Origin: Betaproteobacteria bacterium
Lineage (GTDB): Bacteria; Pseudomonadota; Gammaproteobacteria; Burkholderiales; SG8-39
NCBI GenBank assembly: GCA_004297625.1
Contig: SCTY01000004.1
Location: 2,697-66,696, forward strand
Length of the DNA: 64,000 nt
Reading direction: 5' to 3'
The translations under genes and the position numbers were made by a program. The stretch's first letter is position 1, and the number at the start of each line of letters is the position of its first letter. Below are positions 45,247-64,000 of the stretch, in pieces. A model generated the notes under the pieces. It made no database searches, was not told the origin of the DNA, and was given only the letters and a program-made list of their open reading frames with translations.

Positions 45247-45277
45247 CCTGCTGCGACCCCGGGCGCCCCAAAACCGC

Positions 45278-46436: not shown

Positions 46437-46898
46437 ATGACTGGACCGGCCAATTATTTCAACGGGTTGAAACGCGTTGGGGCAGTTTACGACTTCACGA
46501 CCGGGGACGAAAATATGTTTTGCGACCGCATGGGCCTGATCAAGCTCACCGCGGAAAACTTTCACAAGCGCGGAATCGAGACGGACTTCGTCATTTTGAT
46601 TCATGGTCCTTCAACCAAGTTCGTTACCAAGTCGCAGAGCGGTACGAAGTTCGACGGCGAGAAGGTCGCACGGCTGCCGGAAATCCATGCCCTGATGAGA
46701 GAACTCGACGATTCCGGAAAGGCCCGCATAGTGACGTGCGGAATCGCAATGGGGCGTCATCTTATCGGCAAGGACAATCTGATGCCGTTTACGGCCGTCG
46801 AGGAGAACGTCGCGGAAATCAGCATCGCGTTGCAGAACCAGGGTTACGCCTACATGCAGGTTGACCTGATGGCGGCGGTTCCGGTGAAGGCGGCTTGA
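46437..46898 (+). CDS. DsrE/DsrF-like (COG1416-type) protein, cytoplasmic
   Basis: ATG after AAGGAGG. VYDFTTGDE.., FVILIHGPSTKFV, RIVTCGIAMGRHL, GYAYMQV. It aligns with the 10529 product and the 11667 C-terminal domain. No signal peptide. Confidence 0.6.
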   Translation: MTGPANYFNGLKRVGAVYDFTTGDENMFCDRMGLIKLTAENFHKRGIETDFVILIHGPSTKFVTKSQSGTKFDGEKVARLPEIHALMRELDDSGKARIVTCGIAMGRHLIGKDNLMPFTAVEENVAEISIALQNQGYAYMQVDLMAAVPVKAA

Positions 46899-47958: not shown

Positions 47959-48045
47959 GGGAACAGCGCCGCGACGCGGCGCGTAGCTTCGCTAAGCTCG
48001 AGGTAACCCAAGTGTGAGTGTGACAGTGCTCTCCACTCTATTTTC

Positions 48046-48265
48046 CTACAAGGCGGGAATCGACATTGTGGCGAGCGCGTCCTCTAGAATTCCAAGGCCT
48101 TCGTGCATGACCGCCTCGGGCACCGTGAGCGGCACCATGATGCGGATGACGTTGCCGTAGATCCCGCAGGAGAGCGGGAGCGGGCCGCTCTCACGCCTCG
48201 GCGACCAATCTGCGCGCCAACCTGGGGCGTTGCTGGCGCGGCGGACGAGTAGCGGGTGCGGCTGG
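48046..48265 (-). pseudogene. C-terminal remnant of a class III aminotransferase (paralogue of 39469..40770)
   Basis: ..PLPLSCGIYGNVIRIMVPLTVPEAVMHEGLGILEDAL.. matches ..LILLSCGTYGNVIRLLMPLTAPDTIVDEGLAILEQCV.. of the intact gene. Upstream similarity (LARRLVAEA*) lies in another frame and has an in-frame stop. Confidence 0.7.
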
Positions 48266-48278
48266 GTCCATGATTTCC

Positions 48279-49262: not shown

Positions 49263-49297
49263 AGCTTTCTCCTCCTTCAATTTAACGGCGGTCGAGA

Positions 49298-50092
49298 TCA
49301 GGGTCTGCGCGGGCGGGCGAGCACCAGCCCCAGAACGGCGAGCGCCACGTTCATGAGCACGAGCATGACCGAGATCGCCGCCAGAATCGGAGTCATTTCG
49401 TAGAAGATGCCGTCGAGCATCCGTTTGGGGAGAGTGACCGCCTGCGTCCCGCTCAGGAACATCGCGATCACCACCTCGTCGAACGACACCAGAAAGGCAA
49501 ACACCGCGCCTGCGGCGATACCCCGCCAGATAAGCGGGATCGTGACCTGGGCAAGGGTCGCCGCAGGTCCGGCGCCGAGGCTCATGGCCGCTTCTTCGAG
49601 CGCCCGCGGCAGGGCTGCAACCGCGGCCGACACGTTCAGGATCACGAAGGGGGTCGTGAGCACCGCGTGCGCGAGAATCAGCCCGAAAGGGGAACCGACC
49701 AGCCGGAGCGAGGCGTAGACGCCGTAGATCGCGATCGCGACCACTACCGTCGGCAGCAGAATCGGGCTCAGAAGGATCAGGCTGCAGACGTTGCGTACCG
49801 CCTCGCTCGCCCGCGCCAGGCCGACGGCGGCCAGCGTACCGACGAGCGTGGCGATGCCGGCGGCGCCGACCGCGACCTTGAAGCTCAGCAGTGTCGAGGC
49901 CATCCACTCGCGCCCGGAGAAGTATTCGGAGTACCAGCGCAGCGAGATGCTGCTTGGCGGGAACCGCAGCAGCGACCCCTGCTCCAGTGAGAGCGGGAAC
50001 ATCATCAGGATGGGCAGCATCAGGTAGACGAACCCCGCCGCCGCGATGACTCGGAATGCCACGCCTATCCAGCCGTGCTCAGCCGACCACAC
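49298..50092 (-). CDS. ABC transporter permease (PotC-like)
   Basis: 264 aa, six TM helices. EAAMSLGAGPAATLAQVTIPL is an EAA loop. Confidence 0.85.
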   Translation of the reverse strand: MWSAEHGWIGVAFRVIAAAGFVYLMLPILMMFPLSLEQGSLLRFPPSSISLRWYSEYFSGREWMASTLLSFKVAVGAAGIATLVGTLAAVGLARASEAVRNVCSLILLSPILLPTVVVAIAIYGVYASLRLVGSPFGLILAHAVLTTPFVILNVSAAVAALPRALEEAAMSLGAGPAATLAQVTIPLIWRGIAAGAVFAFLVSFDEVVIAMFLSGTQAVTLPKRMLDGIFYEMTPILAAISVMLVLMNVALAVLGLVLARPRRP

Positions 50093-50957
50093 GTTCGCCG
50101 CCGAACGTTCGCGCTGCCGTGACGCGACGATACGCCGCCACGAGAGCGGCGACGATGACGAGGAGGATCATCGAGGCCGCGGCGGCCAGAGGCCAATTGA
50201 CGAATTCCTGAATCTGCTGCTCGATGAATGTCGCCGCCAGAAGCACCCGGCCGCCGCCGAGCAGGGCCGGCGTGATGAAGAAGCCGACCGCCGTCGTGAA
50301 CACGAGCAGCGATCCCGCATAAACGCCCGTCAGGCTGAGCGGAAGCGTGACCGCCCAGAAGACGCGCGAAGGACTCGCCCCGAGGCTCCCGGCGGCCTCT
50401 CTCAACGCGCGGTCCTGGGAATGGATGGCCACGAAGATCGGGAGCACCATGAATGGCAGGAGCGTATTCGTCATGCCGATCACGACCCCGACCTCGTTGT
50501 AAAGGAGCTCGGCGGGTTTTCCCCCTGGCAACAAGACCCCGGCCGCGACGCTGAGCACGCCGCCCTTTCGCAGCAGATACACCCATGCGTAGTTGCGCAC
50601 CAGAACGCTGGTCCAGAAGGGCAGCAGCACCAGCAGAGACAGCAGCGCGCGCCGGCGCGCGGAGGAGAACGCCAGCACGTAGGCGATCGGATAGCCGAGA
50701 ATCACGCAGCCGGCGACCACCAGCGCGCTGAGGCGGAAAGTGCGCAGCAGGATCGCCGAATAGGACCACTGGTCGAGCAGCGCCGCATAGGCCGCAAGGG
50801 ACAGGCCCTTTTCGCCGAAGCTGACGGCGGCGAGGCGGCCGACCGGGATCAGGTAGAGAACGCCGACCAAGGCCAAGGCCGGCAGGAGCAAAAGCACGCC
50901 GGCCCGCAGCGGCGGGAAGCGGACGACGGCCGCGGCGTCGCGGGCGATGCGCTTCAT
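50079..50957 (-). CDS. ABC transporter permease (PotB-like)
   Basis: EAAGSLGASPSRVFWAVTLPL is an EAA loop. The start at MKRIARD overlaps the ATPase stop by 4 nt. Confidence 0.85.
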   Translation of the reverse strand: MKRIARDAAAVVRFPPLRAGVLLLLPALALVGVLYLIPVGRLAAVSFGEKGLSLAAYAALLDQWSYSAILLRTFRLSALVVAGCVILGYPIAYVLAFSSARRRALLSLLVLLPFWTSVLVRNYAWVYLLRKGGVLSVAAGVLLPGGKPAELLYNEVGVVIGMTNTLLPFMVLPIFVAIHSQDRALREAAGSLGASPSRVFWAVTLPLSLTGVYAGSLLVFTTAVGFFITPALLGGGRVLLAATFIEQQIQEFVNWPLAAAASMILLVIVAALVAAYRRVTAARTFGGERVVG

Positions 50958-52090
50958 CGAAGTACCACCGTATCCTCGATGGCCCACGAAAGAAGCACGT
51001 CTGCTCCGGGGCGCACGTGCGCCGCGCCCGCACGGTTCGGCTCGCGCACGATCACCTCATGACCCGCAGCCGAGACGATGTACTCGATCGAGTCGCCCAG
51101 GAAGATCGCATCCAGAACTCGGCCGCGCAGCGTGTTGAAGCGCCGGGAATCGGGTTCGGCGCGATCGATGCGCAATTTCTCCGGGCGCACGAGCAGCGTC
51201 GCGGACTCGGGTGCGCTGCCCTGCCACGGGCAGTGGACGATGCTGCCATCATTCAGCAGCATCTCTCCCTCGGCCGGCGGCGATGGCACAATGCTGCCCC
51301 GGAATAGGTTCGAGTCCCCAACGAACGCCGCCACGAACTCGGTTTGCGGTTTCTCGTAAAGCGTGCGGGGCGGGCCGATCTGCTCCAGTTTTCCGTGGTT
51401 CATGACGGCCACCAGATCGGACATCACGAACGCTTCGGTCTGGTCGTGCGTGACATAAACCGTCGTGATCCTGAGCCGCTTCTGCAGCTGCCTGATCTCC
51501 TGCTGCATGCGCTCGCGGAGCCGTTTGTCGAGGGCCGCCAGAGGTTCGTCCATCACCAGGATCCGCGGCTTGAATACGAGCGCACGGGCGAGCGCCACGC
51601 GCTGCTGCTGGCCGCCGCTCAACTGGCCGGGGTGGCGCTCGCCGTAGCCGGGCAATCCGACCATGTCGAGCGCCTCTTCGACGCGCTGCCTGCGAGCCGG
51701 TTTCGGAACGCGGCGCTGTTTGAGCGCAAAGCCGATGTTCTCGGCCACCGTTATGTGCGGAAACAGCGCATAGCGCTGGAATACGACCCCGATGTCGCGC
51801 CGGTAGGGAGGCAGCCGGCTGATCTCGCTTCCGTCGACCATGATGCTGCCGCGGTCGGGCAGCTCGAACCCGCCGAGCAGCCGCAGAACGGTCGTCTTTC
51901 CGGAACCGCTCGGCCCGAGCAGGCTCATGAACGCTCCGGCCGGCACCGCAAACCACACGTCGTCCACCGCGGTGATGCCCTCGAAGCGCTTGACCAGGTT
52001 GCGCACTTCGAGCGCGGGACCCGCGGCGCCGGCCGCTGACCCCGAGTCCGAGCACGCTCGACGCCCGCTCAGGCGATCAGGCGCTTCCAT
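50954..52090 (-). CDS. ABC transporter ATP-binding protein (PotA-like)
   Basis: LLGPSGSGKTT, LSGGQQQRVALARAL, ILVMDEPLAALD. The ORF track fuses it to an out-of-frame read-through of the upstream gene. I chose the start at MEAPDRL (52090), which is uncertain. Confidence 0.85.
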   Translation of the reverse strand: MEAPDRLSGRRACSDSGSAAGAAGPALEVRNLVKRFEGITAVDDVWFAVPAGAFMSLLGPSGSGKTTVLRLLGGFELPDRGSIMVDGSEISRLPPYRRDIGVVFQRYALFPHITVAENIGFALKQRRVPKPARRQRVEEALDMVGLPGYGERHPGQLSGGQQQRVALARALVFKPRILVMDEPLAALDKRLRERMQQEIRQLQKRLRITTVYVTHDQTEAFVMSDLVAVMNHGKLEQIGPPRTLYEKPQTEFVAAFVGDSNLFRGSIVPSPPAEGEMLLNDGSIVHCPWQGSAPESATLLVRPEKLRIDRAEPDSRRFNTLRGRVLDAIFLGDSIEYIVSAAGHEVIVREPNRAGAAHVRPGADVLLSWAIEDTVVLR

Positions 52091-53049
52091 CGCTCCTCGA
52101 CGTTGGACCGGTCGAGATACCAATCCCAGTCCGGAAACGACAGATCCGCATCGGTCAGCCGCCCGCCGTAGATGCGCGGAAGCAAACGCTCGTCGAGTTT
52201 TACTTTGCGGTTGGTCGGATGCCCGAAGAAGCTCTCCGCGAGGTCTTTCTGCGGGCCTGGCCCCTGGACGAAGTTGATGAACTCGCGCGCGAGCTCGGCG
52301 TTCCTGGAGCCCTCGACTATGGTCCAGCTCCGGTAGGCCCAGACCGGGCCCTCCGACGGAAAGACCACTTCGATCTCGACGCCGCGGTCCTTCTGGATCT
52401 GGGCAACGTCGATGAATTGCTGGCTCACCGCTGCGTGCCTGGAGGCGATGATCTCCTGCACGTGCCCTTCGGAGCTGGCCCAGAGCCCTGCCTGAGCGAC
52501 CAGCGCGGTGAGCTTCGTCCAGGCGCGCTCGAATGTCTTTTCGTCCCGCAGCCGCTCCGTTCCGATCCCGAGCACCTTGCACGTGATTGCCATGAGCTGT
52601 CCCGGCGCGATCTGGTCCCGCAATGCGATCTTGCCCTTGAGCTCGGGCGCCCAGAGGTCGGCCCAGCTCGTGATCGGGCGAGGCACCATGCCGGGCACGT
52701 AGACCGGGACCATGCCGTACACGAACACCCCTACGCCGAACGCAGAGGGATCGAGATAGCGTGGGTGCATGTCGGCCAGGTTGGGCATCCTCGCGTAGTC
52801 GAGCTTCATGCACATGCCCGCGCGCTTGGCCTTGCGGAAAAGGTGCTGCGGCCATTCGACGACGTCGTAGCTGTGCCGTCCCGTCTTGATGTCCTCTTGC
52901 ACGTCTTCGAGGAAGTGCTCGGATCGCGCCGGGGTATCGACCGTCACGCCGAAGGCCTTCGCAAACGGCTCCGTCAGGCAGCGCCGGAATATCTCGGTCG
53001 CAATCCCCGGCTGCAACGGCACCGAGAGGCGGTCCCTTGAGTGGGCCAC
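52069..53049 (-). CDS. solute-binding-protein (family 1, PotD/PotF-like) homologue lacking a signal peptide
   Basis: Paralogue of 53100..54179, but it begins at the mature domain (LSVPLQPGIATEIFRRCLTEPFAKAFGVTVD versus VVISSWGGAIQQAMRKAFFDPFTQESGIEV). The GTG start has AAGGAGG exactly 7 nt upstream. Confidence 0.7.
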   Translation of the reverse strand: MAHSRDRLSVPLQPGIATEIFRRCLTEPFAKAFGVTVDTPARSEHFLEDVQEDIKTGRHSYDVVEWPQHLFRKAKRAGMCMKLDYARMPNLADMHPRYLDPSAFGVGVFVYGMVPVYVPGMVPRPITSWADLWAPELKGKIALRDQIAPGQLMAITCKVLGIGTERLRDEKTFERAWTKLTALVAQAGLWASSEGHVQEIIASRHAAVSQQFIDVAQIQKDRGVEIEVVFPSEGPVWAYRSWTIVEGSRNAELAREFINFVQGPGPQKDLAESFFGHPTNRKVKLDERLLPRIYGGRLTDADLSFPDWDWYLDRSNVEERWKRLIA

Positions 53050-53099
53050 TGTTCATCCTCCTTATTGTCTTGAGCGATGGTCTTCTTCACTCGCTGCAA

Positions 53100-54179
53100 T
53101 CACCCGGAGACGAACTGATTCCAGCGCGGGCCGAGCTTGGCGAGGTTTTCGCCCCACCATCTACCGTCCAGGACGATCTGCTTCGCGAAATTTGCCGGGT
53201 ACGTCGGCAGCCGCACCAGGGTCTTCTGGTCCTTGATCAGATCGAGTGCCTTGGTATTGGTAGGCCCGTAATAGACGATCTTGGCGAATTCCGCCTGCGG
53301 TTCGGGTCGCGCCACGAACGAGAGGAACTTGAGCGCGTTGTCCCGGTTCGGGGCGCCCTTGGCGAGCACCCATACCAGGAAGTTCATCACCGCGCCGTTC
53401 CAGACGAACTCAAGCGGCGCGCCCTGGTCCTGATGGAAGTAAAGCCGGCCGTTGAAGAACTCGGCCATGTCGACTTCCTTGTCGACCAGCAGCTGCTCGC
53501 CTTGCGAACCGGTCTGGTACCAGATGTTGATCGCCGGCTTGATTTCGGCGAGCTTCTTGAACGCGCGGTCGATCTTTGCGTCGCTCAGCGGATAGACGTC
53601 CTTGGGGGCGACCCCGTCCGCCATGAGTGCGTACTCAAGATGGCGCGCGACCAATGGCCCGAACATCGCACGCCGTCCCTTGAATCCCTTCGTGTCCCAG
53701 AAATCCCGCCAATCGCGAGGCGCGCGCGTGGCCTGCCTGTTGTAGGAGATCCCCCAAGCCGCCGTCCCGTAGCCGAACGCGTATTCGTCGAGTGCGCCGG
53801 CCATGAAATCGGAGCGGCTCAGGCTCGGCAACTCGATCTTGTCCAGCAGCCCCTGGCCGCGGCCGATCACGGACCAGAACGGCGGTCCGTCGAGTAGGTC
53901 GACCTGCGCGCCGCCCTCGCCGAGCTGAGCCTTTACGCGGGCGAGGCCCTGCCCGCCGTAGGTCTGCTCGATGACTTCAATGCCGCTTTCTTGCGTGAAG
54001 GGGTCGAAGAAGGCCTTGCGCATGGCCTGTTGAATGGCTCCGCCCCAACTGCTGATCACCACGCGGCCGCGGCCTTGCGCGCGCGCCGCCCGGATGATGC
54101 CGGACGAAGGTAGTAGCGCACCCGTGCCGGCGGCAAGTGCTGATTTGAGTAGGGCGCGTCGCGTCAGTTTTCCGGGCAC
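53100..54179 (-). CDS. periplasmic solute-binding protein (family 1, PotD/PotF-like)
   Basis: Leader LTRRALLKSALAAGTGALLPSSGIIRAARA, and the length and pattern of a polyamine-type binding protein. Confidence 0.85.
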   Translation of the reverse strand: MPGKLTRRALLKSALAAGTGALLPSSGIIRAARAQGRGRVVISSWGGAIQQAMRKAFFDPFTQESGIEVIEQTYGGQGLARVKAQLGEGGAQVDLLDGPPFWSVIGRGQGLLDKIELPSLSRSDFMAGALDEYAFGYGTAAWGISYNRQATRAPRDWRDFWDTKGFKGRRAMFGPLVARHLEYALMADGVAPKDVYPLSDAKIDRAFKKLAEIKPAINIWYQTGSQGEQLLVDKEVDMAEFFNGRLYFHQDQGAPLEFVWNGAVMNFLVWVLAKGAPNRDNALKFLSFVARPEPQAEFAKIVYYGPTNTKALDLIKDQKTLVRLPTYPANFAKQIVLDGRWWGENLAKLGPRWNQFVSG

Positions 54180-54426
54180 GGTTCATCTCCTTGAGGGTAA
54201 AGGCCGATCCCTGTTCCACGCTTCGGTGGAACGGGTTCGTGGCGAGAGTCACGTGACGCCGTCGATTCATGCGGTGCGAGCGCATCGACCCGCGAGTCGC
54301 GCAACTCGAACCTGCGGCCATCGATCGGTATTTGAGGGCTCCCGGTTGATTTGATGGTAGATCTGGTGTTGCTGCCGAACAAATGATAGTTTTTGGCATC
54401 AAGCATCAACGTTTTGGATCCTGCAA

Positions 54427-55323
54427 TTGGACATCCGCCAAATCGAGACTTTCGTGTGGATCGCGAGGCTGGGCAGCATTGCTGAAGCGTGCAAACGGCT
54501 GAATGCGACCCAGTCGACGCTGTCCATGCGGCTCAAGACGCTGGAGGAGTCGCTGAACGTCTCCCTGTTCGACCGGGCTCACAAGCGGCTTACCCTGACG
54601 GCGAAGGGTCGCGATCTGGCGCGCTACGCGGAGAAGATTCTCGAATTGATCGAGCAGGTGCGGTTCTACGTGGCCGACCCGAAGGCCGCGTTCGGCACGG
54701 TGCGGGTCGGCGCCACCGAGCTGATCGCGCTGACATGGGCGCCCGATCTGATCCGCAGAATCAACGCGCAGTTCCCCCAGGTGCTGTTCGACCTCGAGGT
54801 CGGACTGACCCTCTCTCTGATGGATGGCCTCGCGGACGGCAAGCTGGACGCGGTCCTGGTTCCCACGCTCCACAAGCCGGTAACGCCCCTGACGGGAGTT
54901 TCTCTGGGTACCGTGACGTTCTCGTGGATGGCCAGCCCGGCGCTGGGGCTCGGCGGGAAGAGAGTGACGCCGGGGGATCTGCAGGAGCTTGCCATCATCG
55001 GTGCGAGCGCCCAGTCAATTTTCCACTCCCTTGTCGACCAGTGGTTTACCGACCATGGAGCCGCGATCCAGAGGCTCAACGTCTGCAACAGTCTTACGGC
55101 GAGTATCTCCATGACGGTTGCAGGAGTGGGGGTCAGCCTTCTCCCCGATCAGTTTTGCATTCCGTACGTCAAGAGGCGCCAACTCGAAATCCTGCGCGCG
55201 AACCGTCGCTTCGATCTCGAGTTTTATGCGATTTACAGCGCTCGAGGCGAGCGACCTTTGCCCAGGCTCGTCGCGGAGCTGGCTCAGTCGATCTCCACGT
55301 TTCCCCGAGTGCAGGTGAAATGA
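54427..55323 (+). CDS. LysR-family transcriptional regulator (TTG start)
   Basis: MDIRQIETFVWIARLGSIAEACKRLNATQSTLSMRLKTLEESL. It is divergent from the binding-protein/ABC/agmatinase operon. Confidence 0.9.
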   Translation: MDIRQIETFVWIARLGSIAEACKRLNATQSTLSMRLKTLEESLNVSLFDRAHKRLTLTAKGRDLARYAEKILELIEQVRFYVADPKAAFGTVRVGATELIALTWAPDLIRRINAQFPQVLFDLEVGLTLSLMDGLADGKLDAVLVPTLHKPVTPLTGVSLGTVTFSWMASPALGLGGKRVTPGDLQELAIIGASAQSIFHSLVDQWFTDHGAAIQRLNVCNSLTASISMTVAGVGVSLLPDQFCIPYVKRRQLEILRANRRFDLEFYAIYSARGERPLPRLVAELAQSISTFPRVQVK

Positions 55324-55486
55324 GGGAGCTTTTCATCTTCAGGTCGAGTGGAAACCTCAAGTTAAACAAAAGGAGTGGCGACTTGCCTACGTCTATAGAC
55401 CGGTCGTGACATGAGCGAATCGCTGCCGCGCTCAAGTATGTGCTCTTGCCAGTGCGGATGGTGTTTCAGGAAGCTGGGCGTGAGCG

Positions 55487-56299
55487 CTAATGCGGCGCCG
55501 CGTCGCGTGTTTGCTGTTCCTGCGCGGCGTATTCCCGCATCACCAGGTCGCGCACCCGGGAGCGCAGCCCCAGGAACTCGGCGTTCTCGTGCAGCTGTTC
55601 CGTTCTCGGATAGGGAAAGGGCACTTCGACGATGCAGCGCACGCGCGAGGGGCGGGCCGAGACGACCACCACCCGCGACGACAGGTAGATCGCCTCCTCT
55701 ACCGAGTGAGTGATCAGCATCACGGTCTTGCCCTCTTTCTGAAGGACTTCGAGCAACAGATCCTGCATGGCGGTGCGGGTCTGGGCGTCAAGCGCGCCGA
55801 ACGGTTCATCCATCAGCAGGAACTGCGGCGCCACCGCGTAGGCGCGCGCCAGCGCAAGCCGTTGCCGCATTCCGCCCGAAAGCGTCTTGGGATACGCGTT
55901 GCGGAACTCGTACAGTCCCATCAACCTCATGTAGCGCTCGCAGACCTCCGCGCGTTTCTCCCTGGATCGAGGGTTTGACCGCAGGTTAAGCCCGAACTCG
56001 ATATTCTTTTCGACGGTCAACCATGGGAATACCCCGTATTCCTGAAAGATGACTCCGCGGTCGGAGCCCGGCCCCAAAATCGGGATACCGTCCAGCGTGA
56101 CGGATCCGCGGGAAGGTTTGATGAACCCGGCGACGATGTTGAGCATCGTCGTCTTGCCGCAACCGGAAGGCCCCACCAGTGAAACGAACTCGCCGTCGCG
56201 TACGCTGAACGAAACATCCTCGACCACCGGAAGCATGTCTGTGGGCGTCGGAAAGGTGACGGACACATGGTCGAATACGATGCGGTCCGGGCTGATCAT
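55487..56299 (-). CDS. ABC transporter ATP-binding protein (NitT/TauT family, SsuB/TauB-like)
   Basis: LVGPSGCGKTTMLN, LSGGMRQRLALARA, LLMDEPFGALD. The start at MISPDRIV overlaps the permease stop by 4 nt. Confidence 0.88.
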   Translation of the reverse strand: MISPDRIVFDHVSVTFPTPTDMLPVVEDVSFSVRDGEFVSLVGPSGCGKTTMLNIVAGFIKPSRGSVTLDGIPILGPGSDRGVIFQEYGVFPWLTVEKNIEFGLNLRSNPRSREKRAEVCERYMRLMGLYEFRNAYPKTLSGGMRQRLALARAYAVAPQFLLMDEPFGALDAQTRTAMQDLLLEVLQKEGKTVMLITHSVEEAIYLSSRVVVVSARPSRVRCIVEVPFPYPRTEQLHENAEFLGLRSRVRDLVMREYAAQEQQTRDAAPH

Positions 56300-57087
56300 G
56301 CCGCTATCCTGTCTTGCCAGCTCAAGAAGCGTCGCGAAACCTTGCGCAATATCAGGTCCATGATCAAGGCGATCAGCCCGATACATATGATGCCGAGGTA
56401 GATGATGTCGAGCTGGAAAAACGAGGAGGCGTTCTGGATCATCGCCCCGAGGCCATTTTGTGCGGCGATCAACTCCGACGCGACCAGCGTCGCCCAGACG
56501 ACACCGAGCTCCACGCGTACCGCGGTAAGGATGTGCGGCAATGACAGCGGCACGATTACGCGTCGAAAAATCTCGCCATCCGTCGCCCCGAGCGTGCGCG
56601 CGACACGTATGTAAATCGGGCTGATCTGGCTGATGCCCTCGTACATGACGATGACGCCGGAGAAGAACGCGGCGTAGAACAGGATCACGACTTTCGCCGC
56701 CTCGCCGATTCCGAAATACACCACGACCAGCGGTATCAGGGCGATTGGCGGCAGCGCGCGGAAGAAATTGATGAGCGGATCGGCGAAAACATGGACGCTC
56801 CTGTTCCATCCGAGGGCGAACCCCGTCGGCACGGCAAGCAGCGTTCCCAGGACAACGCCTACCAGAACGCGCTTCGTGGATACCAGCATGTCGATCGGAA
56901 GTTTTCCGTTCGACATCAGTTCCCAGAAACGCCTCGCGACCTGCGCTGGAGTGGGAATCAGGCTGGGATTCACGATCCCGGAGTAATGCAGGAGCGTCCA
57001 TGCGGCTATTACGCAGATCCACGGCAGGGCCAGCACGATCAGTTTCTTGAGCGGGTTCGCGTAAGTCATGTCGTTTGCGCGTTGCAC
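56296..57087 (-). CDS. ABC transporter permease (NitT/TauT family, SsuC/TauC-like)
   Basis: 263 aa. RVARTLGATDGEIFRRVIVPLSLP is an EAA-type loop. Confidence 0.85.
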   Translation of the reverse strand: MQRANDMTYANPLKKLIVLALPWICVIAAWTLLHYSGIVNPSLIPTPAQVARRFWELMSNGKLPIDMLVSTKRVLVGVVLGTLLAVPTGFALGWNRSVHVFADPLINFFRALPPIALIPLVVVYFGIGEAAKVVILFYAAFFSGVIVMYEGISQISPIYIRVARTLGATDGEIFRRVIVPLSLPHILTAVRVELGVVWATLVASELIAAQNGLGAMIQNASSFFQLDIIYLGIICIGLIALIMDLILRKVSRRFLSWQDRIAA

Positions 57088-57182: not shown

Positions 57183-57198
57183 ATGGTAGCGCTACCAT
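57183..57198. promoter_or_regulatory. perfect 16-bp palindrome ATGGTAGCGCTACCAT (LacI-type operator), copy 2
   Basis: Lies 20 nt upstream of the aldehyde dehydrogenase ATG, in the divergent region shared with the ABC permease operon. The 5' flank TAT(T/C)CT is also shared with copy 1. Confidence 0.75.
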
Positions 57199-57217: not shown

Positions 57218-58648
57218 ATGAGCGAAACGCCCTATCGGTTCGGCCGCGGCGCGAGCCGCTTCGCTACCCGGAATCCGGCGCGGCCGGGCCGGCTGGCCGG
57301 CGACTACGGAGCGGACGATCCCGCTTCGGTGCAGGAGGCGGTGGCGCGCGCCGCCCGCGCCTTCCGCGACTGGCGCGCGCGGCCGGCGGCGCAACGCGCC
57401 GAGCGCGTCGCCGTTTGGCTCGATCGTCTTGCACAACGCGCCGAGGAGATCGCGCGGGCGATCGTGCTCGAGCAGGGCAAGCCGCTGGGCGAAGCGCGGG
57501 GCGAGTTCGCCAAGGCGCTTGCCGAGGCGCGATTCATGGTATCGCAGGCGCTGCATCAAGGTTCGCGCGAGGTCGGCGCGGCGCGCCAAGGCACGCGCAA
57601 TCTGGTGCTGCGCCGCGCACGCGGCGTCGTGGCGGCGCTCACGCCGTGGAACTTCCCGATCCTCACCCCGCTGCGCAAAATCGTCCCTTCTCTCGTGGCC
57701 GGCAATACCGTGGTGCTCAAGCCTTCGGAGCTGACGCCTGCCGCGGCCTGGCTCGCCGCTGACGCCGCCGCCGGCATCCTTCCGGAAGGTGCGCTGGAAA
57801 TTGTTCTCGGCGGTCGCGACGCGGGCGAGGCGTTGATCCGGGCGCCCGGACTCTGCGGCGTCACCTTCACCGGATCGGTTGCCACCGGCCGCGCCATCGG
57901 CGCCATCGCCGGCTCGAACCTGCTCGAGCAGAATTTGGAGCTCGGCGGAAAGAACGGCGTGATTGTAGCCGCCTCCGCGGATCCCGGTAGCGCCGCGGCG
58001 CAAATTGCGCACGCTGCTTTTCTTTGCTCCGGGCAACGCTGCACGGCGATCAGCAGGGCCATCGTGCACGTCTCGCACTGGAACGCTTTCGTCGCGGGAA
58101 TGCAGGCTGCCATCACCGCCGCCAAGCTCGGCGACGGTCTGGACCCCACGACCACGCTGGGGCCGCTCGTTTCGGCCAGCCACCGGGATAGGGTGGCTGC
58201 GATGGTCGATCAAGCCAGCCGCGAAGGCGCGCAACTGATCGCCGGCGGCGGACCCGCCCGTCCTCAGGGCTGCGAGGACGGCTATTTCTTTCAACCGACG
58301 CTGCTCCGGGCGGCGCCGCACATGGTTTGCGCGCGGGAGGAGATCTTCGGGCCGGTCGTGACGCTGCTGCCATACACCGAATGGGACGAGGCCCTCGCCA
58401 TTCTGAACGGCACGGATTATGGGCTCGCCGCTGCACTCTTCTCGCGCGACTCCGCCGAGGTCGAGCGCTTCCTCAACGAAGCCGAGGCCGGCATGCTGTT
58501 CGTCAACCAGGGTACGGTACCCGACAACCACATGCCGTTTGTCGGCACGAAGGTCTCGGGCGTCGGCCCGGGTTCGGTGGGCCCATCGGCGCTGGCGTTT
58601 GCCACTACCGAGCACGCCGTATACCTTTCTACGGGAAATATCGCGTGA
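57218..58648 (+). CDS. NAD(P)-dependent aldehyde dehydrogenase
   Basis: TPWNFPIL, VVLKPSELTP, ELGGKNGVIV, FLCSGQRCTAISR (catalytic Glu and Cys motifs). Confidence 0.9.
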   Translation: MSETPYRFGRGASRFATRNPARPGRLAGDYGADDPASVQEAVARAARAFRDWRARPAAQRAERVAVWLDRLAQRAEEIARAIVLEQGKPLGEARGEFAKALAEARFMVSQALHQGSREVGAARQGTRNLVLRRARGVVAALTPWNFPILTPLRKIVPSLVAGNTVVLKPSELTPAAAWLAADAAAGILPEGALEIVLGGRDAGEALIRAPGLCGVTFTGSVATGRAIGAIAGSNLLEQNLELGGKNGVIVAASADPGSAAAQIAHAAFLCSGQRCTAISRAIVHVSHWNAFVAGMQAAITAAKLGDGLDPTTTLGPLVSASHRDRVAAMVDQASREGAQLIAGGGPARPQGCEDGYFFQPTLLRAAPHMVCAREEIFGPVVTLLPYTEWDEALAILNGTDYGLAAALFSRDSAEVERFLNEAEAGMLFVNQGTVPDNHMPFVGTKVSGVGPGSVGPSALAFATTEHAVYLSTGNIA

Positions 58649-58896
58649 CGCCGCAGGAACGGATCCACGTCGTGGTCGATCCGCGGGACAACGTCACTAC
58701 GGTGTTGGACCAGGGCACGGGCCTTGACCGGCTGCAGGGCGGATTAGAGGTCGCCCTCGGGGTTCCGTTCGGCCACAAGGTGGCGCTGCGGCCGATCGCA
58801 CGCGGCGAACCGGTGATCAAGTATGGCGTGGCGATCGGGCGCGCCACGCACGATATCGCCTCCGGCGCGCACGTCCACGTCCACAACTGTGCCTGA
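58645..58896 (+). CDS. UxaA-family SAF-domain small subunit (SuyA-like)
   Basis: GTGA overlap with the ALDH stop. 83 aa with VPFGHKVALRPIARGEPVIKYGVAIGRATHDIASGAHVHVHN, the N-terminal SAF module of altronate dehydratase-type enzymes. Confidence 0.75.
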   Translation: MTPQERIHVVVDPRDNVTTVLDQGTGLDRLQGGLEVALGVPFGHKVALRPIARGEPVIKYGVAIGRATHDIASGAHVHVHNCA

Positions 58897-60070
58897 GGCG
58901 CCCTTGGCTGTCCTGCCCTCGCATTTCTTGGGCTTCCCGCGCAGCGACGGGCGCGTCGGCGTGCGCAACTACTTGGTAGTGGTGTCCGCCGTTGCTTTGG
59001 TCAATCGCTGGGCTGAATTGATCGCGGCGTCATTGCCCGACGCTCGCGCGATCGCCGGCGAATTCATGCGCGGGCTGCGCAAACCCGACGCCGCCCGGCA
59101 AGCACGGGTTTGCGAGGCGCTCGCAACGCATCCGAATGTCGGCGCCTGCCTGGTGCTTTGCCACGACGCGGCGAGCGCACGACTCTGGCGCGAATACTTG
59201 GCGGACTGCGGTCGACCGCATGCCGTCCTGGCCTTGATGGAGCAAAACGGAATGGAAGCGGCGATCCAAGCCGGGCAGCGCGCGTTAGCCCAACTCGACG
59301 AAATGCGCCGTTCGGTCGCCCGGCAGCGTTCTCCGTTCAGCGCGCTCACCCTGGCACTCGAGTGCGGCGGCTCGGACCCGACTTCCGCGCTGATCGCCAA
59401 TCCGGCCATTGGCCGGGTGGTGGATGCGGTGATCGACGCCGGCGGCAGCGCCATCGTCTCGGAGACAGTGGAGTTCGTCGGCGCCGAGGCTCCAGTGCGC
59501 GCACTCTGCCGCAGCCCGCGGGTAGCGAAGGACCTGCTCGCCGCCATCGCGGCTGCCGAACAGCGCATGGAAGAGGACGGCGAGCGCTACCGCGGCGTCA
59601 ACCCGACCGCGGAGAACATCGAGGCTGGCCTGACCACGCTCGTCGAAAAAAGCATGGGCGCGGTGGCCAAGGTGGGATCCCGCTCTTTTGCGGGATTGCT
59701 GGAATTCGGCGAGAAGCCGGCGACGCCGGGCCTGTACCTGATGGACACTCCGTTTTTCAGTCCCTGCTCGATCACCGGCATGATCGCCGCCGGTGCGCAA
59801 CTCACCTTGTTCGGCATGGGCGTATTCAACCCTTCCGGCAATCCGCTGGCGCCCACCGTCAAGGTCTGCGGCAACCCGATGACGGTCGCGCGCTGGAACG
59901 ACGCGATCGACGCAGACTTGAGCGATGTGCTCGCCGGGGGCGCCACCCTCGACCAGGCGGCGCAGCGGCTCGGCGCGTTTCTAGTCGAGACCGTCGAAGG
60001 CCGCGAGACGCGCGCCGAGCGTTGGCGGGAGGGCCAGTTCATCGTTCCGAAGACCTTGACCCCGCTCTGA
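58889..60070 (+). CDS. UxaA-family large subunit (SuyB-like)
   Basis: The GTG start overlaps the small-subunit stop. GFPRSDGRVGVRNYLVVVSAV, LECGGSDPTSALIANPA, GLYLMDTPFFSP, FGMGVFNPSGNPLAPTVKVCGNP. Confidence 0.8.
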   Translation: MPEAPLAVLPSHFLGFPRSDGRVGVRNYLVVVSAVALVNRWAELIAASLPDARAIAGEFMRGLRKPDAARQARVCEALATHPNVGACLVLCHDAASARLWREYLADCGRPHAVLALMEQNGMEAAIQAGQRALAQLDEMRRSVARQRSPFSALTLALECGGSDPTSALIANPAIGRVVDAVIDAGGSAIVSETVEFVGAEAPVRALCRSPRVAKDLLAAIAAAEQRMEEDGERYRGVNPTAENIEAGLTTLVEKSMGAVAKVGSRSFAGLLEFGEKPATPGLYLMDTPFFSPCSITGMIAAGAQLTLFGMGVFNPSGNPLAPTVKVCGNPMTVARWNDAIDADLSDVLAGGATLDQAAQRLGAFLVETVEGRETRAERWREGQFIVPKTLTPL

Positions 60071-60083
60071 CGCGCGAGCTGCC

Positions 60084-61697
60084 GTGCAACACTTGAGCCG
60101 CGCCGCCCGGGAGTTCGATTACATCGTGGTCGGCGCGGGCTCCAGCGGCTGCGTGCTCGCCAACCGGCTGAGCGCGGACGCTCGCTACACCGTGCTGTTG
60201 TTGGAGGCCGGCGGACCCGATACGAGCCCCTGGATCCACATTCCCATCGGCTACGGCAAGACAATCTTCGACAGCCGCGTCAATTGGGGCTACGAGACCG
60301 AGCCCGAACCCGATCTGGAAGGGCGGCGCATCTACTGGCCCCGCGGCAAGGTGCTGGGCGGATCCGGCTCGGTCAACGGCCTCGTCTACATCCGCGGCCA
60401 GCGCGAGGACTTCGATGGCTGGGCAGCACAAGGCAACCCGGGATGGAGCTACGACGAGCTGCTGCCCTATTTCCGAAAATCCGAGCACCAGGCGCGGGGC
60501 CCCGATGCCTTTCACGGCGCGGATGGGCCGATGTGGGTGTCGGATCTTTCCGAGCACCACCCATTGTGCGAGGCTTTCATCGCCAGCGCCCGCCGGCTCG
60601 GCATGCCGCCCAATCCTGATTTCAACGGTGAGCGCCAGGAAGGCGTCGGGTATTTTCAATTAACCACGCGGCGAGGGCTGCGCTCCAGCCCTGCGAGCGC
60701 TTACCTGCGCCCCGCCCGCGCCCGGACGAACCTTACTCTCGGCGTGCGCGCGCTCGCGCGCCGCGTGTTGTTTCAGGGCCGGCGCGCGATTGGTGTCGAG
60801 TTCGAGGCGGACGGTGAGGTGCGGCAGGCGCGCGCGCGCCGCGAGGTACTGCTGTCCGGCGGCGCGATCAATTCGCCCCAACTGCTCATGCTCTCGGGCA
60901 TCGGCGACGCCGCGCGGCTGGCACGCTTCGGAATCGCGCCGGTCGCGGACCTGCGCGGTGTCGGTCGCAACCTGCAGGACCACCTGCAAGCGCGGGTGGT
61001 GCTCAAGGCGAAACGGCCGATCACCTACAACGACGTCTTCAACAGCCCGCTTCGGACGCTGCAGGCGGGCCTTCAATGGGCGCTGCTGCGCCGGGGGCCG
61101 CTGACGGTGAGCGCCGGGCAGGCAGGCGCCTTCGTGCGCGTCATGCCGGACGCCGGGCGCCCGGACGTGCAATTCCATTTCATCACTTTCAGCACGGACC
61201 GGCCGGGCGAGGGCCTGCACAAGTTTTCCGGCTTCACCGCCTCGGTCTGCCAACTGCGCCCGGCGAGCCGCGGCCGCATCGAGCTGGCGAGCGCCGACCC
61301 GAAGTCCGCGCCCCGGATCCACGCCCACTACCTGTCCGCCCCGGGCGATCTCGAGGTGCTGCGCGAGGCTGTTCGCCTGGCGCGGCGCATCGCCCGCACG
61401 CCGCCGCTCGCGGACCTCGTCGCCGAGGAGTTCTCGCCAGGAGCGGCGGCGGACGACGACAACGCGCTCGACGCCTTCATCCGCGGCACGGCGCTGACCA
61501 TCTTCCACCCGGTTGGCACATGCGCGATGGGCCGCGGCGAGGACGCGGTGGTCGACCACGAGTTGCGCGTGCGCGGCGTCGAGGGTCTGCGCGTGATCGA
61601 TGCGTCGATCATGCCGACGCTGGTTTCGGGCAACACCAACGCGGCCGCCGTCGCGATCGGGGAAAAGGGCGCCGATCTGGTATTGCAGGCGGCGTGA
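60084..61697 (+). CDS. GMC-family FAD oxidoreductase (choline dehydrogenase-like)
   Basis: FDYIVVGAGSSGCVLANRLS, GKVLGGSGSVNGLVYIRG, HPVGTCAMG, IMPTLVSGNTNA. Confidence 0.9.
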   Translation: MQHLSRAAREFDYIVVGAGSSGCVLANRLSADARYTVLLLEAGGPDTSPWIHIPIGYGKTIFDSRVNWGYETEPEPDLEGRRIYWPRGKVLGGSGSVNGLVYIRGQREDFDGWAAQGNPGWSYDELLPYFRKSEHQARGPDAFHGADGPMWVSDLSEHHPLCEAFIASARRLGMPPNPDFNGERQEGVGYFQLTTRRGLRSSPASAYLRPARARTNLTLGVRALARRVLFQGRRAIGVEFEADGEVRQARARREVLLSGGAINSPQLLMLSGIGDAARLARFGIAPVADLRGVGRNLQDHLQARVVLKAKRPITYNDVFNSPLRTLQAGLQWALLRRGPLTVSAGQAGAFVRVMPDAGRPDVQFHFITFSTDRPGEGLHKFSGFTASVCQLRPASRGRIELASADPKSAPRIHAHYLSAPGDLEVLREAVRLARRIARTPPLADLVAEEFSPGAAADDDNALDAFIRGTALTIFHPVGTCAMGRGEDAVVDHELRVRGVEGLRVIDASIMPTLVSGNTNAAAVAIGEKGADLVLQAA

Positions 61698-61708: not shown

Positions 61709-62755
61709 CTAACAGCTCGAGGCGGCCTGCGGCGGGCTGCCTTGCGGAACCCGGAACCGATCGAGCAGCCTTTCCGCGTTGCCGGAAAGAATCGCCGCGC
61801 GATCGGCTTCGGCGAGGCGGGCTTGACGAACGGCGGCGAGCGTCCAGTCGACCCGGAAGATCGGGCAATCGGTGCCGAAGACGATTCGTTCTGCCCCGTA
61901 GATCGCCACCGCGAGTTCGAGCGTGTGCGGGCCGAGCGAGGCACAGTCCACGGTTACCCGGCGCACGCGTTCGGAAGGCAGTGTGGTGCCAGGTGCACGA
62001 GTCCTGACGGTATGATCCATGCGCTCGATCACCGCCGGCAACGTGCCGCCGAGATTGGCGACATGGATGGAGACGTTCGGATATCGGTCGAGGAAATCGG
62101 TGAACAGCAGAGTGATCATCGCCTCGCTCACCTCGGCCTGCACCTCCAGCGCGCGGCGCAGCAGCGCGTTATCCGGATCGGGTTCGCGCGATGCGCCGTC
62201 GCAAGCCAGGGAGCGCAACGCCTCGTCAGGACGCCGTCCCGGATGGATGAAAAAATGGGCCCCCATTTCTTCGGCCACTGCAAACAGGGGGCGCATTTTT
62301 CCCGCCTCCGCGAGACTCGTGAAGGCATTGTTCGGCAGGATGGCGCCGATCAAGCCGAGTTCCGTGCGAGCCTGGCGAAGCTCCGCGATGGCTACATCCA
62401 TGTCGGCGAGCGGCAGTGCCGCCAAGCCGAGAAAGCGGTCGGGGTGCCGCCGGCATACGGCAGCCACGTCTTCGTTGAACGCCCGCGTCGGAGAACCGGA
62501 TTCGTCGAGCGGCAGGCTGTCGATGCCAAACAGCCCCGGCAGCGACAGCACCTGCCGGCGCACGCCGATTTCATCCATCGAGGCCAGTCGTGCGTCGATA
62601 TCCGTATACGCTCGGCCGAAACCCAGGATGCCAACCGGCATCACAAGCCGCTCGGATCCGTCCGGGAGTGTTTCGATGCACGGGGCCACGCGCCGGGCGC
62701 GCAAGAAAGCCACGACCGGAGGCGGCACGTAGTGAGCGTGGAAATCGGTAGCCAT
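61709..62755 (-). CDS. amidohydrolase-2 family protein (ACMSD-like metal-dependent hydrolase/decarboxylase)
   Basis: MATDFHAHYVPPP N-terminus, IHPG.., and FGTDCPI near the C-terminus. Confidence 0.75.
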   Translation of the reverse strand: MATDFHAHYVPPPVVAFLRARRVAPCIETLPDGSERLVMPVGILGFGRAYTDIDARLASMDEIGVRRQVLSLPGLFGIDSLPLDESGSPTRAFNEDVAAVCRRHPDRFLGLAALPLADMDVAIAELRQARTELGLIGAILPNNAFTSLAEAGKMRPLFAVAEEMGAHFFIHPGRRPDEALRSLACDGASREPDPDNALLRRALEVQAEVSEAMITLLFTDFLDRYPNVSIHVANLGGTLPAVIERMDHTVRTRAPGTTLPSERVRRVTVDCASLGPHTLELAVAIYGAERIVFGTDCPIFRVDWTLAAVRQARLAEADRAAILSGNAERLLDRFRVPQGSPPQAASSC

Positions 62756-62766
62756 CAGCTACGCCG

Positions 62767-63309
62767 TCAGGCGATTGCCGGCACAGAGAAGTGAAAGAAG
62801 TTCGGCGCCGGCGTGTTCGACTGCCGAAGATAAATGTCAATGTTGCCGAGATGGTAGGCGCGGTGCGCGTACAGCGCCCAAAGGAAACCCATCACGGTCC
62901 AGGTGCGCTCCGCGAAGCGGATCGTCTTTCGAAGCTGATCGTCCGTATAGCCACGCAGCGTTCGCACGCTGTCCTCGTGCAACCTCGCCGCCTCGCTCAC
63001 GAAATCGCCGTTGGCGAGCTTGGCGGTAAGTTCGGGATCGCGCGGCAGCGGCAGCGTCGCGTCGTTCTCGGAGTCCTTCAGGAAGCGCACCCAGTGGTAC
63101 TCTTCCACCGCCATGTGAATGTAGAGGTTTTTGATCGTAACCATCGACACGCGATCGCCGAAGCGAACGTTGGGGTTATCGACCGGAATCCAGTCCAGCT
63201 TGTCCTTGGGCGTTTTCGCGATCCAGTCGTTGGTCGCGCCGGAGAGGCACTCCTGAAGAACCATGAAACGGTCAAACTCGTTCCGAAACTCAACCTGCGA
63301 CATCGGCAA
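62767..63309 (-). CDS. DinB-like four-helix-bundle family protein (tentative)
   Basis: 180 aa. LYIHMAVEEYHW and ALYAHRAYHLGNIDIY are His-containing helices reminiscent of the DinB/YfiT fold. Confidence 0.4.
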   Translation of the reverse strand: MPMSQVEFRNEFDRFMVLQECLSGATNDWIAKTPKDKLDWIPVDNPNVRFGDRVSMVTIKNLYIHMAVEEYHWVRFLKDSENDATLPLPRDPELTAKLANGDFVSEAARLHEDSVRTLRGYTDDQLRKTIRFAERTWTVMGFLWALYAHRAYHLGNIDIYLRQSNTPAPNFFHFSVPAIA

Positions 63310-63348
63310 GCTCCTTCTTTTTTCCAGGTTCGGCCGTCGGGCGCGCCG

Positions 63349-64000
63349 TCACTGCGGAACGACCGCAGACGCCGGTTCGAACGGGCGGGCGCCACGCTTG
63401 CCCAGAACCCACTCGCCGGCTCCAGCGGCTCGCCGGCGCTGCGAGATGAAGAAGCGGGCCCGGTCGCTGCGATAAAGGGTAACGCTGTGTTCGACCGGTC
63501 GCCGAGCCCGGTCGTATGAGGTGCGGCTCACCGACAATAGCGCCGCGCCGACATTGACGCCGAGCAGGACGCTCTGATTGGCGTCGGCCACGACCGCCTC
63601 GATGAATTGTTCGGCCTCAGTGGCCTCGACACCACAGCGGTGCGCGAGCGTTTTCAGCAGATGCTGGGCGGCAAGGTCCACAGGGCGCAAGCGCTCGCCG
63701 AGCGCGCGCGGCAGGAAAATGCGCGTGGCTGAAAACGGCTGGCCTTCGACCATCAGGAGGCGCCGAAACGCGAAAGTTTCGTCCCCGGGGGCAAGCGCCA
63801 AGGCCGCAGCGACGGCATGTGATGCCTCGACCATGCCTGCTTCCAGCACCTGCACCTGGGCGGGGACCCCCAAAGCGATCAGATCCGCGAGCAGACACGT
63901 CATCTTCAAATCCGTGATCGCGGCAGCGGCCTCGCCCACAAAAGTCCCCCGGCCCGGCTCGCGGCGGACGAGCCCGTCGCGCTCCAGGTTTTGCAGCGCT
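63349..64000 (-). CDS. GntR-family (HutC/UTRA-type) transcriptional regulator, N-terminus outside window
   Basis: The reverse translation at the window end gives ALQNLERDGLVRREPGRGTFVGE, the end of a GntR wHTH. A UTRA-like effector domain follows. Confidence 0.75.
   Translation of the reverse strand, partial: ALQNLERDGLVRREPGRGTFVGEAAAAITDLKMTCLLADLIALGVPAQVQVLEAGMVEASHAVAAALALAPGDETFAFRRLLMVEGQPFSATRIFLPRALGERLRPVDLAAQHLLKTLAHRCGVEATEAEQFIEAVVADANQSVLLGVNVGAALLSVSRTSYDRARRPVEHSVTLYRSDRARFFISQRRRAAGAGEWVLGKRGARPFEPASAVVPQ

Follow-up and report, generated by a model that had tools for sequence, protein, structure and literature searches.

Gene organization and regulation of the module

The 64,000-nucleotide stretch analyzed here (the window; contig SCTY01000004.1 of the Betaproteobacteria assembly GCA_004297625.1, positions 2,697 to 66,696) encodes an aldehyde dehydrogenase (ALDH), a split enzyme of the UxaA family and a GMC flavoprotein, together with an ATP-binding cassette (ABC) importer and a LacI-family regulator. 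The original prediction, made from the letters alone, had read these genes as a candidate route for the desulfonation of C3 organosulfonates, with the split enzyme as the sulfolactate sulfo-lyase SuyAB. The window has a GC content of ~64%, and the genes were picked out by frame-wise GC at the third codon position (GC3). The four genes on which the prediction was built (ALDH, SAF small subunit, UxaA-family large subunit and GMC flavoprotein) lie where it had placed them, are co-directional on the plus strand and carry the Pfam domains claimed for them. The features of the module and the nearby TauE gene are as follows:

45278-46294, minus strand: LacI-family regulator (Pfam LacI and Peripla_BP_1/3)
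46342-46357: operator 1, a perfect 16-bp palindrome ATGGTAGCGCTACCAT, 5' of the operon of the DsrE-like and binding-protein genes
46437-46898 (correct frame), plus strand: DsrE-like small protein of ~153 amino acids (aa) with a conserved Cys (IVTCGIAMGR), from the translation
46939-47958, plus strand: periplasmic binding protein of an ABC importer, NMT1/SsuA/TauA type (Pfam NMT1)
55487-56299, minus strand: ABC ATPase (Pfam ABC_tran, 111 bits)
56296-57087, minus strand: ABC permease, divergent from the ALDH operon (Pfam BPD_transp_1, 100 bits)
57183-57198: operator 2, the same palindrome ATGGTAGCGCTACCAT, 20 nt 5' of the ALDH start in the divergent permease/ALDH promoter region
57218-58648, plus strand: NAD(P)-dependent ALDH (Pfam Aldedh, 447 bits)
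58645-58896, plus strand: SAF small subunit, 83 aa (Pfam SAF, 27.5 bits)
58889 or 58904 to 60070, plus strand: UxaA-family large catalytic subunit, 393 or 388 aa (Pfam GD_AH_second, 65.5 bits; GD_AH_C, 235 bits)
60084-61697, plus strand: GMC flavoprotein, choline-dehydrogenase-like (Pfam GMC_oxred_N and GMC_oxred_C)
44238-44996: TauE

The start of the ATPase gene shares 4 nt with the stop codon of the permease gene, and the GTG start of the SAF gene overlaps the ALDH stop codon (GTGA). Two starts are available for the large subunit. A GTG at 58889 yields 393 aa and an 8-nt overlap with the SAF stop, and a TTG at 58904, with a GAGG 5 nt upstream, lies 7 nt past that stop and yields 388 aa, the length of the public-collection entry for this protein (P0001). 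The predicted overlap between the SAF stop and the large-subunit start holds with the GTG alone, as the shorter version starts after the stop codon; whichever start holds, the two genes are tightly coupled. All three domains of the UxaA/GarD superfamily (COG2721), namely SAF, GD_AH_second and GD_AH_C, score above their gathering cut-offs, split over two open reading frames (ORFs). The SAF subunit also matches the N-terminus of the GarD model, and the sole match of the large subunit in the PDB is GarD (6u7l, 104 bits). Homologous SAF subunits span 80-91 aa in most of the loci read, with gene calls of 126-134 aa in two of them (L008 and L009).

The palindrome ATGGTAGCGCTACCAT is found exactly twice in the 5.85-Mb genome, at 46342 and 57183, and, being nowhere else, it delimits the regulon. 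Gene set and regulon are directly established, and the predicted LacI regulon, of which a DsrE-like gene and an ABC importer of the sulfonate type form part, was borne out. Within its own genome, the LacI regulator is the best match (36% identity) to HpsR of the hps-suy cluster of Cupriavidus pinatubonensis, and orthologues with 80-82% identity occupy the equivalent position in loci L111-L114. The TauE gene that had been noted 12 kb upstream is real but lies outside the regulon, in a lower-GC block with no copy of the operator. In L113 and L114, where the lyase is 80% identical, a TauE gene (52% identical to that of the window) and a Bug/TctC receptor gene adjoin the LacI gene; the TauE neighborhood of the window (41941-46294) thus recurs there, though the window copy has no operator.

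Relationship of the split enzyme to SuyAB

SuyAB, the (2R)-sulfolactate sulfo-lyase (EC 4.4.1.24), cleaves (2R)-sulfolactate into pyruvate and sulfite in a reaction that depends on Fe2+. As SuyB references we used two genes validated by gene context, one from plasmid p2 of C. pinatubonensis HN-2 and one from pTAV3 of Paracoccus versutus. The gene order on p2 (LacI-hpsN-hpsO-MFS-hpsP, MFS being a major facilitator superfamily carrier, then two genes named 'UxaA family hydrolase') agrees with the published C. pinatubonensis cluster hpsRNOUPsuyAB (PMC11382572), and the order on pTAV3 (GntR-suyA-suyB-'sulfate exporter') mirrors the arrangement in P. pantotrophus. Directly 5' of these genes, pTAV3 (L110, 674128-687306) also carries a LacI regulator and a four-gene ABC importer, and a pyruvate carboxylase gene follows the exporter. 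Two other candidate references were dropped: a C. metallidurans match, which proved to be a fused gene (530 aa) grouping with GarD of E. coli, and a 'plasmid' gene of Halomonas sp. PA16-9, which is an unannotated, frameshifted fused gene. The frameshifts in the latter are probably assembly errors; the gene (L001, NZ_CP040452.1 340292-357230) lies in a 1.8-Mb record and adjoins TctABC, Ldh_2, two 3-hydroxyisobutyrate-dehydrogenase-like genes and an iron-containing alcohol dehydrogenase gene.

The large subunit of the window is 31% and 28% identical to the two SuyB references, which are 64% identical to each other. These values do not exceed its identity to E. coli UxaA (32%), and it is 33% identical to a split dehydratase from a fucose cluster and 36% identical to a clade represented on contig C24 of the same genome. 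Given that SuyB orthologues are reported to be >70% identical across proteobacterial classes and Firmicutes (Burrichter et al., PMC6278857), the window enzyme falls outside the SuyB orthologue group. Its SAF subunit is 51% identical to C. pinatubonensis SuyA over an alignment of only 43 aa at the C-terminus. The genome holds five UxaA-family genes, and a pair on contig C59 (48287-49854; L015:8591-10158) has a large subunit 78% identical to SuyB and a small subunit 61% identical to SuyA of C. pinatubonensis; judged by sequence, this pair is the organism's true SuyAB. Its neighbors are a divergent GntR/UTRA regulator, a PhoD phosphatase, a TctC receptor and a TAXI-type binding protein. On contig C66 (87611-90024, L191), a HisD paralogue 47% identical to HpsN (33% for the other HisD-like gene), followed by a short-chain dehydrogenase/reductase (SDR) 35% identical to HpsO, may be a dehydrogenase of dihydroxypropanesulfonate (DHPS); NCBIfam has no hpsN-specific model.

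A maximum-likelihood tree of 39 rows (IQ-TREE, LG+C20; a quick version of 54 rows was also built), with E. coli UxaA and GarD and three other fused genes as the outgroup, directly establishes the phylogenetic position of the large subunit. One clade unites the window enzyme with its relatives (100/100, stem 1.45), a second consists of SuyB (100/100, stem 1.5), and a third holds the C24 paralogue with its highly conserved relatives (100/99). The three clades join at 96/92, a grouping that is likely rather than certain because of the long stems involved. Outside of it fall the Bacillus sp. S3 fucose-cluster pair, an E. albertii pair, a Haloferax pair, UxaA and GarD. The large subunit is thus placed apart from the altronate and galactarate dehydratases of E. 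coli, with which it would have clustered had the original prediction been wrong about its affinity.

The Cys motifs tell a similar story. Canonical members of the superfamily carry Cys in TVxC, HxxGC, GLGCE and CGGSD, corresponding to Cys134, Cys173, Cys208 and Cys276 of C785_RS13685, and these four residues are conserved across the superfamily except in SuyAB (Watanabe 2019). In all three clades the first Cys is missing and Arg occupies the position of the second (GEFMRGL, PYGRLQF and LFVRGQY in the alignment), a character that, as read from the alignment, agrees independently with the three-clade grouping. In the window large subunit, the first Cys is replaced by Ala/Leu and the second by Arg, the third lies in CHD rather than GCE, and the fourth (CGGSD) is kept. 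Motifs that separate it from SuyB are CHD/CFD versus (G/C)IE(D/E), MDTPFFSP versus MDSSSAAA and GMGVFNPSGNP versus PTGQGNVIGNP.

With SuyAB of P. pantotrophus NKNCYSA, C. pinatubonensis JMP134 and Desulfovibrio sp. DF1, the window pair shares the small SAF subunit (~80-95 aa), the UxaA subunit (~390 aa) and the coupling of their genes, and the predicted two-subunit layout with SuyAB-like sizes (83 aa plus 388 or 393 aa) was confirmed. The LacI-type regulator is likewise a feature of the hps-suy cluster. Unlike SuyAB, the window pair is accompanied by a GMC flavoprotein instead of HpsN or SlcC/ComC, and its regulon contains neither HpsN/OP nor SlcC/ComC nor SuyZ/TauE genes. Furthermore, the layout does not identify SuyAB by itself, because a heteromeric L-fuconate dehydratase is also split (Watanabe 2019). 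That enzyme (Paraburkholderia mimosarum A19U_RS0100650/55) and the Bacillus sp. S3 pair (L104) share the SAF plus UxaA architecture at ~33% identity but, unlike the window enzyme, keep the canonical motifs TVVC, HGC and GCE and reside amid fucose genes (lactonase, SDRs, FAH, FucU and GH95). The window operon has no lactonase, SDR, FAH or FucU gene. UxaA (D-altronate dehydratase) and GarD (galactarate dehydratase, PDB 6U7L) of E. coli have the same Pfam domains as the window pair, but they are fused single polypeptides with all four Cys and are 25-32% identical to the window enzyme. Failing both the orthology and the gene-context tests for SuyAB, the pair is best filed, on present sequence comparisons, as an uncharacterized family within the UxaA/GarD superfamily that has the SuyAB layout and is probably distant kin of SuyAB.

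The C24 paralogue was first suspected to be the true SuyB, having Ldh_2 and TctC genes nearby, and was rejected at 38% identity to SuyB. This pair (P0121; contig C24, 377162-378661; L014:8950-10449) adjoins GntR, TctC, Ldh_2 and DctP genes in its own genome, and its clade is also represented in L102 and L073. Each of the 120 matches listed has an identity of at least 77%, and their length is 384 aa in nearly every case. In Variovorax sp. SRS16, a C24-type pair lies between a 2-hydroxyacid dehydrogenase and an Ldh-family oxidoreductase, an arrangement resembling the racemizing pair SlcC/ComC. The names that databases give to homologues in the window and C24 clades are unspecific, being limited to 'UxaA family hydrolase' and 'altronate dehydratase large subunit'.

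Conserved partners and distribution

We read nine loci gene by gene and annotated 80 metagenome loci by BLAST against a panel of reference proteins; the partner census covers metagenome loci of 14 kb or more (n = 25; hereafter long loci). An orthologue of the GMC flavoprotein, 43-88% identical to that of the window, is encoded in 23 of the 25, and one of three types of binding protein in 24. The linkage of lyase, GMC and transporter genes is directly established and, for GMC and lyase, near-obligate, as would be expected if GMC and ALDH feed the lyase as originally predicted. A gene of the enolase superfamily (MR_MLE) is found in 12 long loci, usually directly before the SAF gene, and an ALDH gene in 6.

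The core partners are the same across the loci read gene by gene. The arrangement of the window (LacI, then ALDH-SAF-large subunit, with transporter and GMC genes in the locus) recurs in L106, L108 and L115 and, because these are unrelated metagenome contigs, the arrangement reflects more than chance. In L106 and L108, ALDH orthologues with 49-51% identity directly precede the SAF gene. Permeases 62-90% identical to that of the window adjoin the lyase genes in most metagenome loci with a type-A binding protein. DsrE-like homologues with weak matches to PF02635 (DsrE) hold the same position in L008, L009 and L106, and a copy 40-83% identical adjoins the lyase genes in L111, L112, L119 and L155. 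The binding-protein and ATPase genes, which are adjacent in the close relatives L008, L009, L111 and L112, are split in the window by ~7.5 kb of unrelated genes (47959-55486), a block that for this reason looks like an insertion into the module. It contains a fragment of an aminotransferase gene, an ORF resembling agmatinase, a LysR regulator and an ABC system of the Pot type whose two SBP_bac_8 proteins are encoded in tandem. A convergent operon downstream (61709-64000; Amidohydro_2, DinB and GntR) adjoins no relative of the lyase and was not counted in the module.

Among sampled reference genomes, 400 from the phylum and 300 from the order of the window organism, no member of the clade was found (E <= 1e-100). 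Two of these genomes belong to its genus and five to its family, and the module therefore appears to be a patchy accessory. Relatives are encoded on more than 500 lake, sediment and marine metagenome stretches. One of them (P0043, 55% identical) lies between a divergent TauE gene and genes for a TAXI transporter and an Ldh_2 enzyme, the best NCBIfam match of which is sulfolactate dehydrogenase, below the cut-off. In marine loci L185-L189 (L189:1-19072), clade members 46-48% identical are part of a long operon with genes for LacI, GMC, an enolase-superfamily protein, DctQMP, three SDRs, an acetolactate-synthase-like thiamine pyrophosphate enzyme, a PfkB kinase and a LacD-family aldolase. This operon is flanked by two sulfatases, one of them above the choline-sulfatase cut-off, and by a split transketolase, and its kinase/aldolase pair recalls, without being specific to it, the sulfo-Embden-Meyerhof-Parnas pathway (YihV/YihT).

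Oxidoreductases and transport proteins

The GMC flavoprotein passes the NCBIfam model of the choline-dehydrogenase subfamily (PRK02106, 619.7 versus a cut-off of 605) but falls below the betA equivalog (TIGR01810, 520.9 versus 732.1); by these scores it is BetA-like without being BetA. Among solved structures it comes closest to a choline dehydrogenase (9lq0) and to the chloramphenicol-oxidizing CmO (8b7s), and its nearest relatives there oxidize primary alcohols. Some of these relatives oxidize their substrates on to the acid. A literature search for a GMC-type isethionate or DHPS dehydrogenase returned nothing usable. The ALDH has the catalytic Glu (ELGGKN) and Cys (GQRCTA) in its translation, scores below all NCBIfam equivalog cut-offs and has generic PDB and NCBIfam matches. 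RlGabD has two predicted sulfonate-binding Arg residues (PMC10599462), one of which is present in the window enzyme, with Arg at the Arg171 position (WNFPILTPLR) and Leu at that of Arg289. This Arg, of the succinic semialdehyde dehydrogenase type, suggests, though not decisively, that the substrate of the ALDH is an anionic aldehyde.

The binding protein of the window best matches SsuA_fam in NCBIfam (133 bits; cut-off 163.5), followed by taurine-binding models, and its PDB matches are confined to TauA, SsuA-type proteins and an uncharacterized exported protein (3qsl). The two ABC binding-protein subtypes of the module, ~25-30% identical to each other, show the same ranking of SsuA_fam and taurine-binding models, below the cut-offs. 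When the ligand contacts of TauA (PMC6906117; numbering offset between chain and paper, 21) were mapped onto the alignment, the sulfonate-contact positions Gly61, Gly79 and Ser131-Thr132 were kept, as was Trp176, and the amine ligands Glu106 and Asp205 were replaced by Ala and Gly, as in SsuA.

Variants of the module in L105 and L173-L176 have a tripartite ATP-independent periplasmic (TRAP) transporter instead, with the order GMC-DctPQM-ALDH-SAF-large subunit in L105. The best solved relatives of the L105 binding protein are apo 4PFR (214 bits) and BwHpsK (185 bits), the S-DHPS-specific binding protein of Bilophila (PMC13335735) and the best match of known ligand in these variants. Relatives with other ligands score at most 124 bits, and the binders of erythronate and pantoate ~100 bits. 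Seven of the eight DHPS contacts are kept (His42, Glu74, Asn95, Arg152, Arg173, Trp196 and Asn213; Trp238 is replaced by Leu). However, Arg152, Arg173, Asn213, the aromatic residue at 196 and an acidic residue near 76 are generic to the TRAP subfamily, which also includes pantoate and erythronate binders, according to the IseP paper, so that five of the eight positions are generic and the overall similarity to BwHpsK carries more weight than the count of contact residues.

Proposed pathway and alternatives

Taken together, the sequences point to a catabolic module under LacI control whose substrate would be a small anionic alcohol, most probably DHPS or another C3 hydroxy-sulfonate. We infer the sulfonate from the transporter families and from the genes that neighbor relatives of the lyase; the exact substrate, the stereochemistry and the reaction at every step are likewise inferences. 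In the proposed pathway, the SsuA/TauA-like ABC system would import the compound, the GMC flavoprotein would oxidize its primary alcohol and the ALDH would finish the oxidation to the 2-hydroxy acid (sulfolactate). As some loci have no ALDH gene, GMC would have to perform both oxidations there. The split SAF plus UxaA enzyme would then eliminate the C3 substituent to yield pyruvate and sulfite. Thus, we tentatively propose, at somewhat less than an even chance, that the pair is a new SuyAB-related, sulfite-releasing lyase in a GMC-dependent, HpsN-independent pathway for a hydroxy-sulfonate, most likely DHPS.

This scheme resembles that encoded by hpsRNOUPsuyAB in C. pinatubonensis in the proposed import, oxidation of a C3 alcohol to the acid, sulfite release by a split lyase and control by a LacI-family regulator. 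It differs in that the window module has neither HpsN (HisD family) nor the epimerizing pair HpsO/HpsP, and oxidation would rely on the flavin adenine dinucleotide-dependent GMC enzyme, with or without ALDH. Furthermore, the MFS carrier HpsU has its counterpart in an SsuA-like ABC or a BwHpsK-like TRAP transporter, and many loci of the window clade add an enolase-superfamily protein. Known SuyAB does not take (S)-sulfolactate. We consider it possible, though doubtful, that bacteria of lakes and oceans mineralize DHPS or another C3 hydroxy-sulfonate with neither HpsN nor SuyAB: GMC, with or without ALDH, would stand in for HpsN; this third split UxaA family, perhaps specific for the (S)-enantiomer, would replace SuyAB; and the enolase-superfamily protein of about half of the loci would be a sulfolactate racemase in place of SlcC/ComC. 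Of the original prediction, the observation itself stands and the C3-sulfonate route stands in part (layout, regulon and GMC/ALDH linkage), but the identification with SuyAB and the assignment of TauE to the regulon do not.

Several findings weigh against a sulfite-releasing pathway. In addition to the low identity to SuyB, no higher than to UxaA and far below that among SuyB orthologues, and to the long stems beneath the three-clade grouping, there are the genome's own canonical SuyAB and its HisD paralogue with 47% identity to HpsN, which together make the module dispensable for the known route. In the genome, ATGGTAGCGCTACCAT accompanies no gene for a sulfite dehydrogenase or exporter, and the census of long loci revealed no sulfite-handling gene as a regular partner: TauE was found in 2 of the 25 (as was the DsrE-like gene) and HpsN, SuyZ and Ldh_2 in none. 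At the level of transport, the Gln that binds the sulfonate in TauA and SsuA is Ile in the window binding protein, and the contacts shared with BwHpsK are largely generic. The enolase-superfamily partner has among its solved relatives acid-sugar dehydratases such as galactarate dehydratase III; the closest solved relative, 3DDM, has no assigned function. Lastly, the basal pair of the clade (P0115 and P0024) lies amid genes for TctCBA, an enzyme resembling L-2-hydroxyglutarate oxidase (LhgO; above the cut-off), a YdiJ-like D-2-hydroxy-acid dehydrogenase of the FAD/Fe-S type and an enzyme resembling acetolactate synthase, a neighborhood that looks like one of hydroxy-dicarboxylate metabolism.

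The alternative that survives best, although we regard it as unlikely, is that the module degrades a non-sulfonated hydroxy acid and that the split enzyme is a true hydroxy-dicarboxylate dehydratase. For example, GMC and ALDH could oxidize a C4 aldonate (threonate or erythronate) to a tartrate isomer, whose dehydration would give oxaloacetate, and the enolase-superfamily neighbor would supply an epimerase or a further dehydratase. Dehydration of 2,3-dihydroxy acids is the established chemistry of the superfamily, yet the first two canonical Cys are replaced in the window enzyme and the third lies in CHD instead of GCE. A second carboxylate, no less than a sulfonate, could be bound by the Arg that replaces the second Cys. 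The LhgO-like and YdiJ-like 2-hydroxy-dicarboxylate enzymes and TctABC beside the basal members, the MR_MLE genes in 12 of the 25 long loci and the best NCBIfam matches of the ALDH, which include 2,5-dioxovalerate and alpha-ketoglutarate-semialdehyde dehydrogenases (below the cut-offs), are all consistent with such a route; however, the core module has no downstream keto-deoxy-acid enzymes in the loci examined. Transport is similarly divided. The TRAP subfamily includes erythronate and pantoate binders, but the TRAP protein of the module is far closer to BwHpsK, and SsuA/TauA-like ABC importers, here of two subtypes, would be unusual for sugar acids. A hydroxy-acid substrate would also leave the DsrE-like, TauE and ComC-like neighbors unexplained.

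We deem it less likely still that the substrate is another small polar alcohol (a quaternary-ammonium alcohol, a sulfate ester or a phosphonate) or a sulfosugar intermediate other than DHPS, cleaved by an undescribed beta-elimination. We know of no precedent for the elimination of trimethylamine or phosphite by a UxaA fold, the residues with which TauA binds the amine are absent from the window binding protein, and no demethylase or betaine-pathway genes lie nearby. Such substrates would nonetheless suit a GMC enzyme of the choline-dehydrogenase subfamily, the weak OpuAC and Phosphonate-bd matches of the binding protein in Pfam and the L185-L189 operons with their PfkB kinase, LacD-family aldolase, SDRs, split transketolase and two sulfatases. 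Finally, that the pair is ordinary SuyAB is extremely improbable: its layout and subunit sizes, the SAF C-terminus and the Arg at the second Cys position match, but the sequence already contradicts it through the low identity to SuyB, the separate 100/100 clade, the genome's own SuyAB on C59 and a regulon with no HpsN, SlcC, ComC or SuyZ gene.

Significance

DHPS and sulfolactate serve as major currencies in which carbon and sulfur pass between phototrophs and heterotrophic bacteria, and their known aerobic breakdown proceeds via HpsN and then one of the lyases SuyAB, CuyA and Xsc. We found no characterized member of the window lyase family. Were the enzyme a hydroxy-dicarboxylate dehydratase, a conserved and unannotated module would gain a testable function, and the case would caution against naming every split SAF/UxaA pair SuyAB. 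If, on the other hand, it is a true sulfo-lyase, a flavoprotein DHPS dehydrogenase and a possibly (S)-specific sulfolactate lyase would be new enzymes, and the environmental turnover of sulfonates would be partly overlooked in surveys based on counts of suyB, cuyA and xsc.

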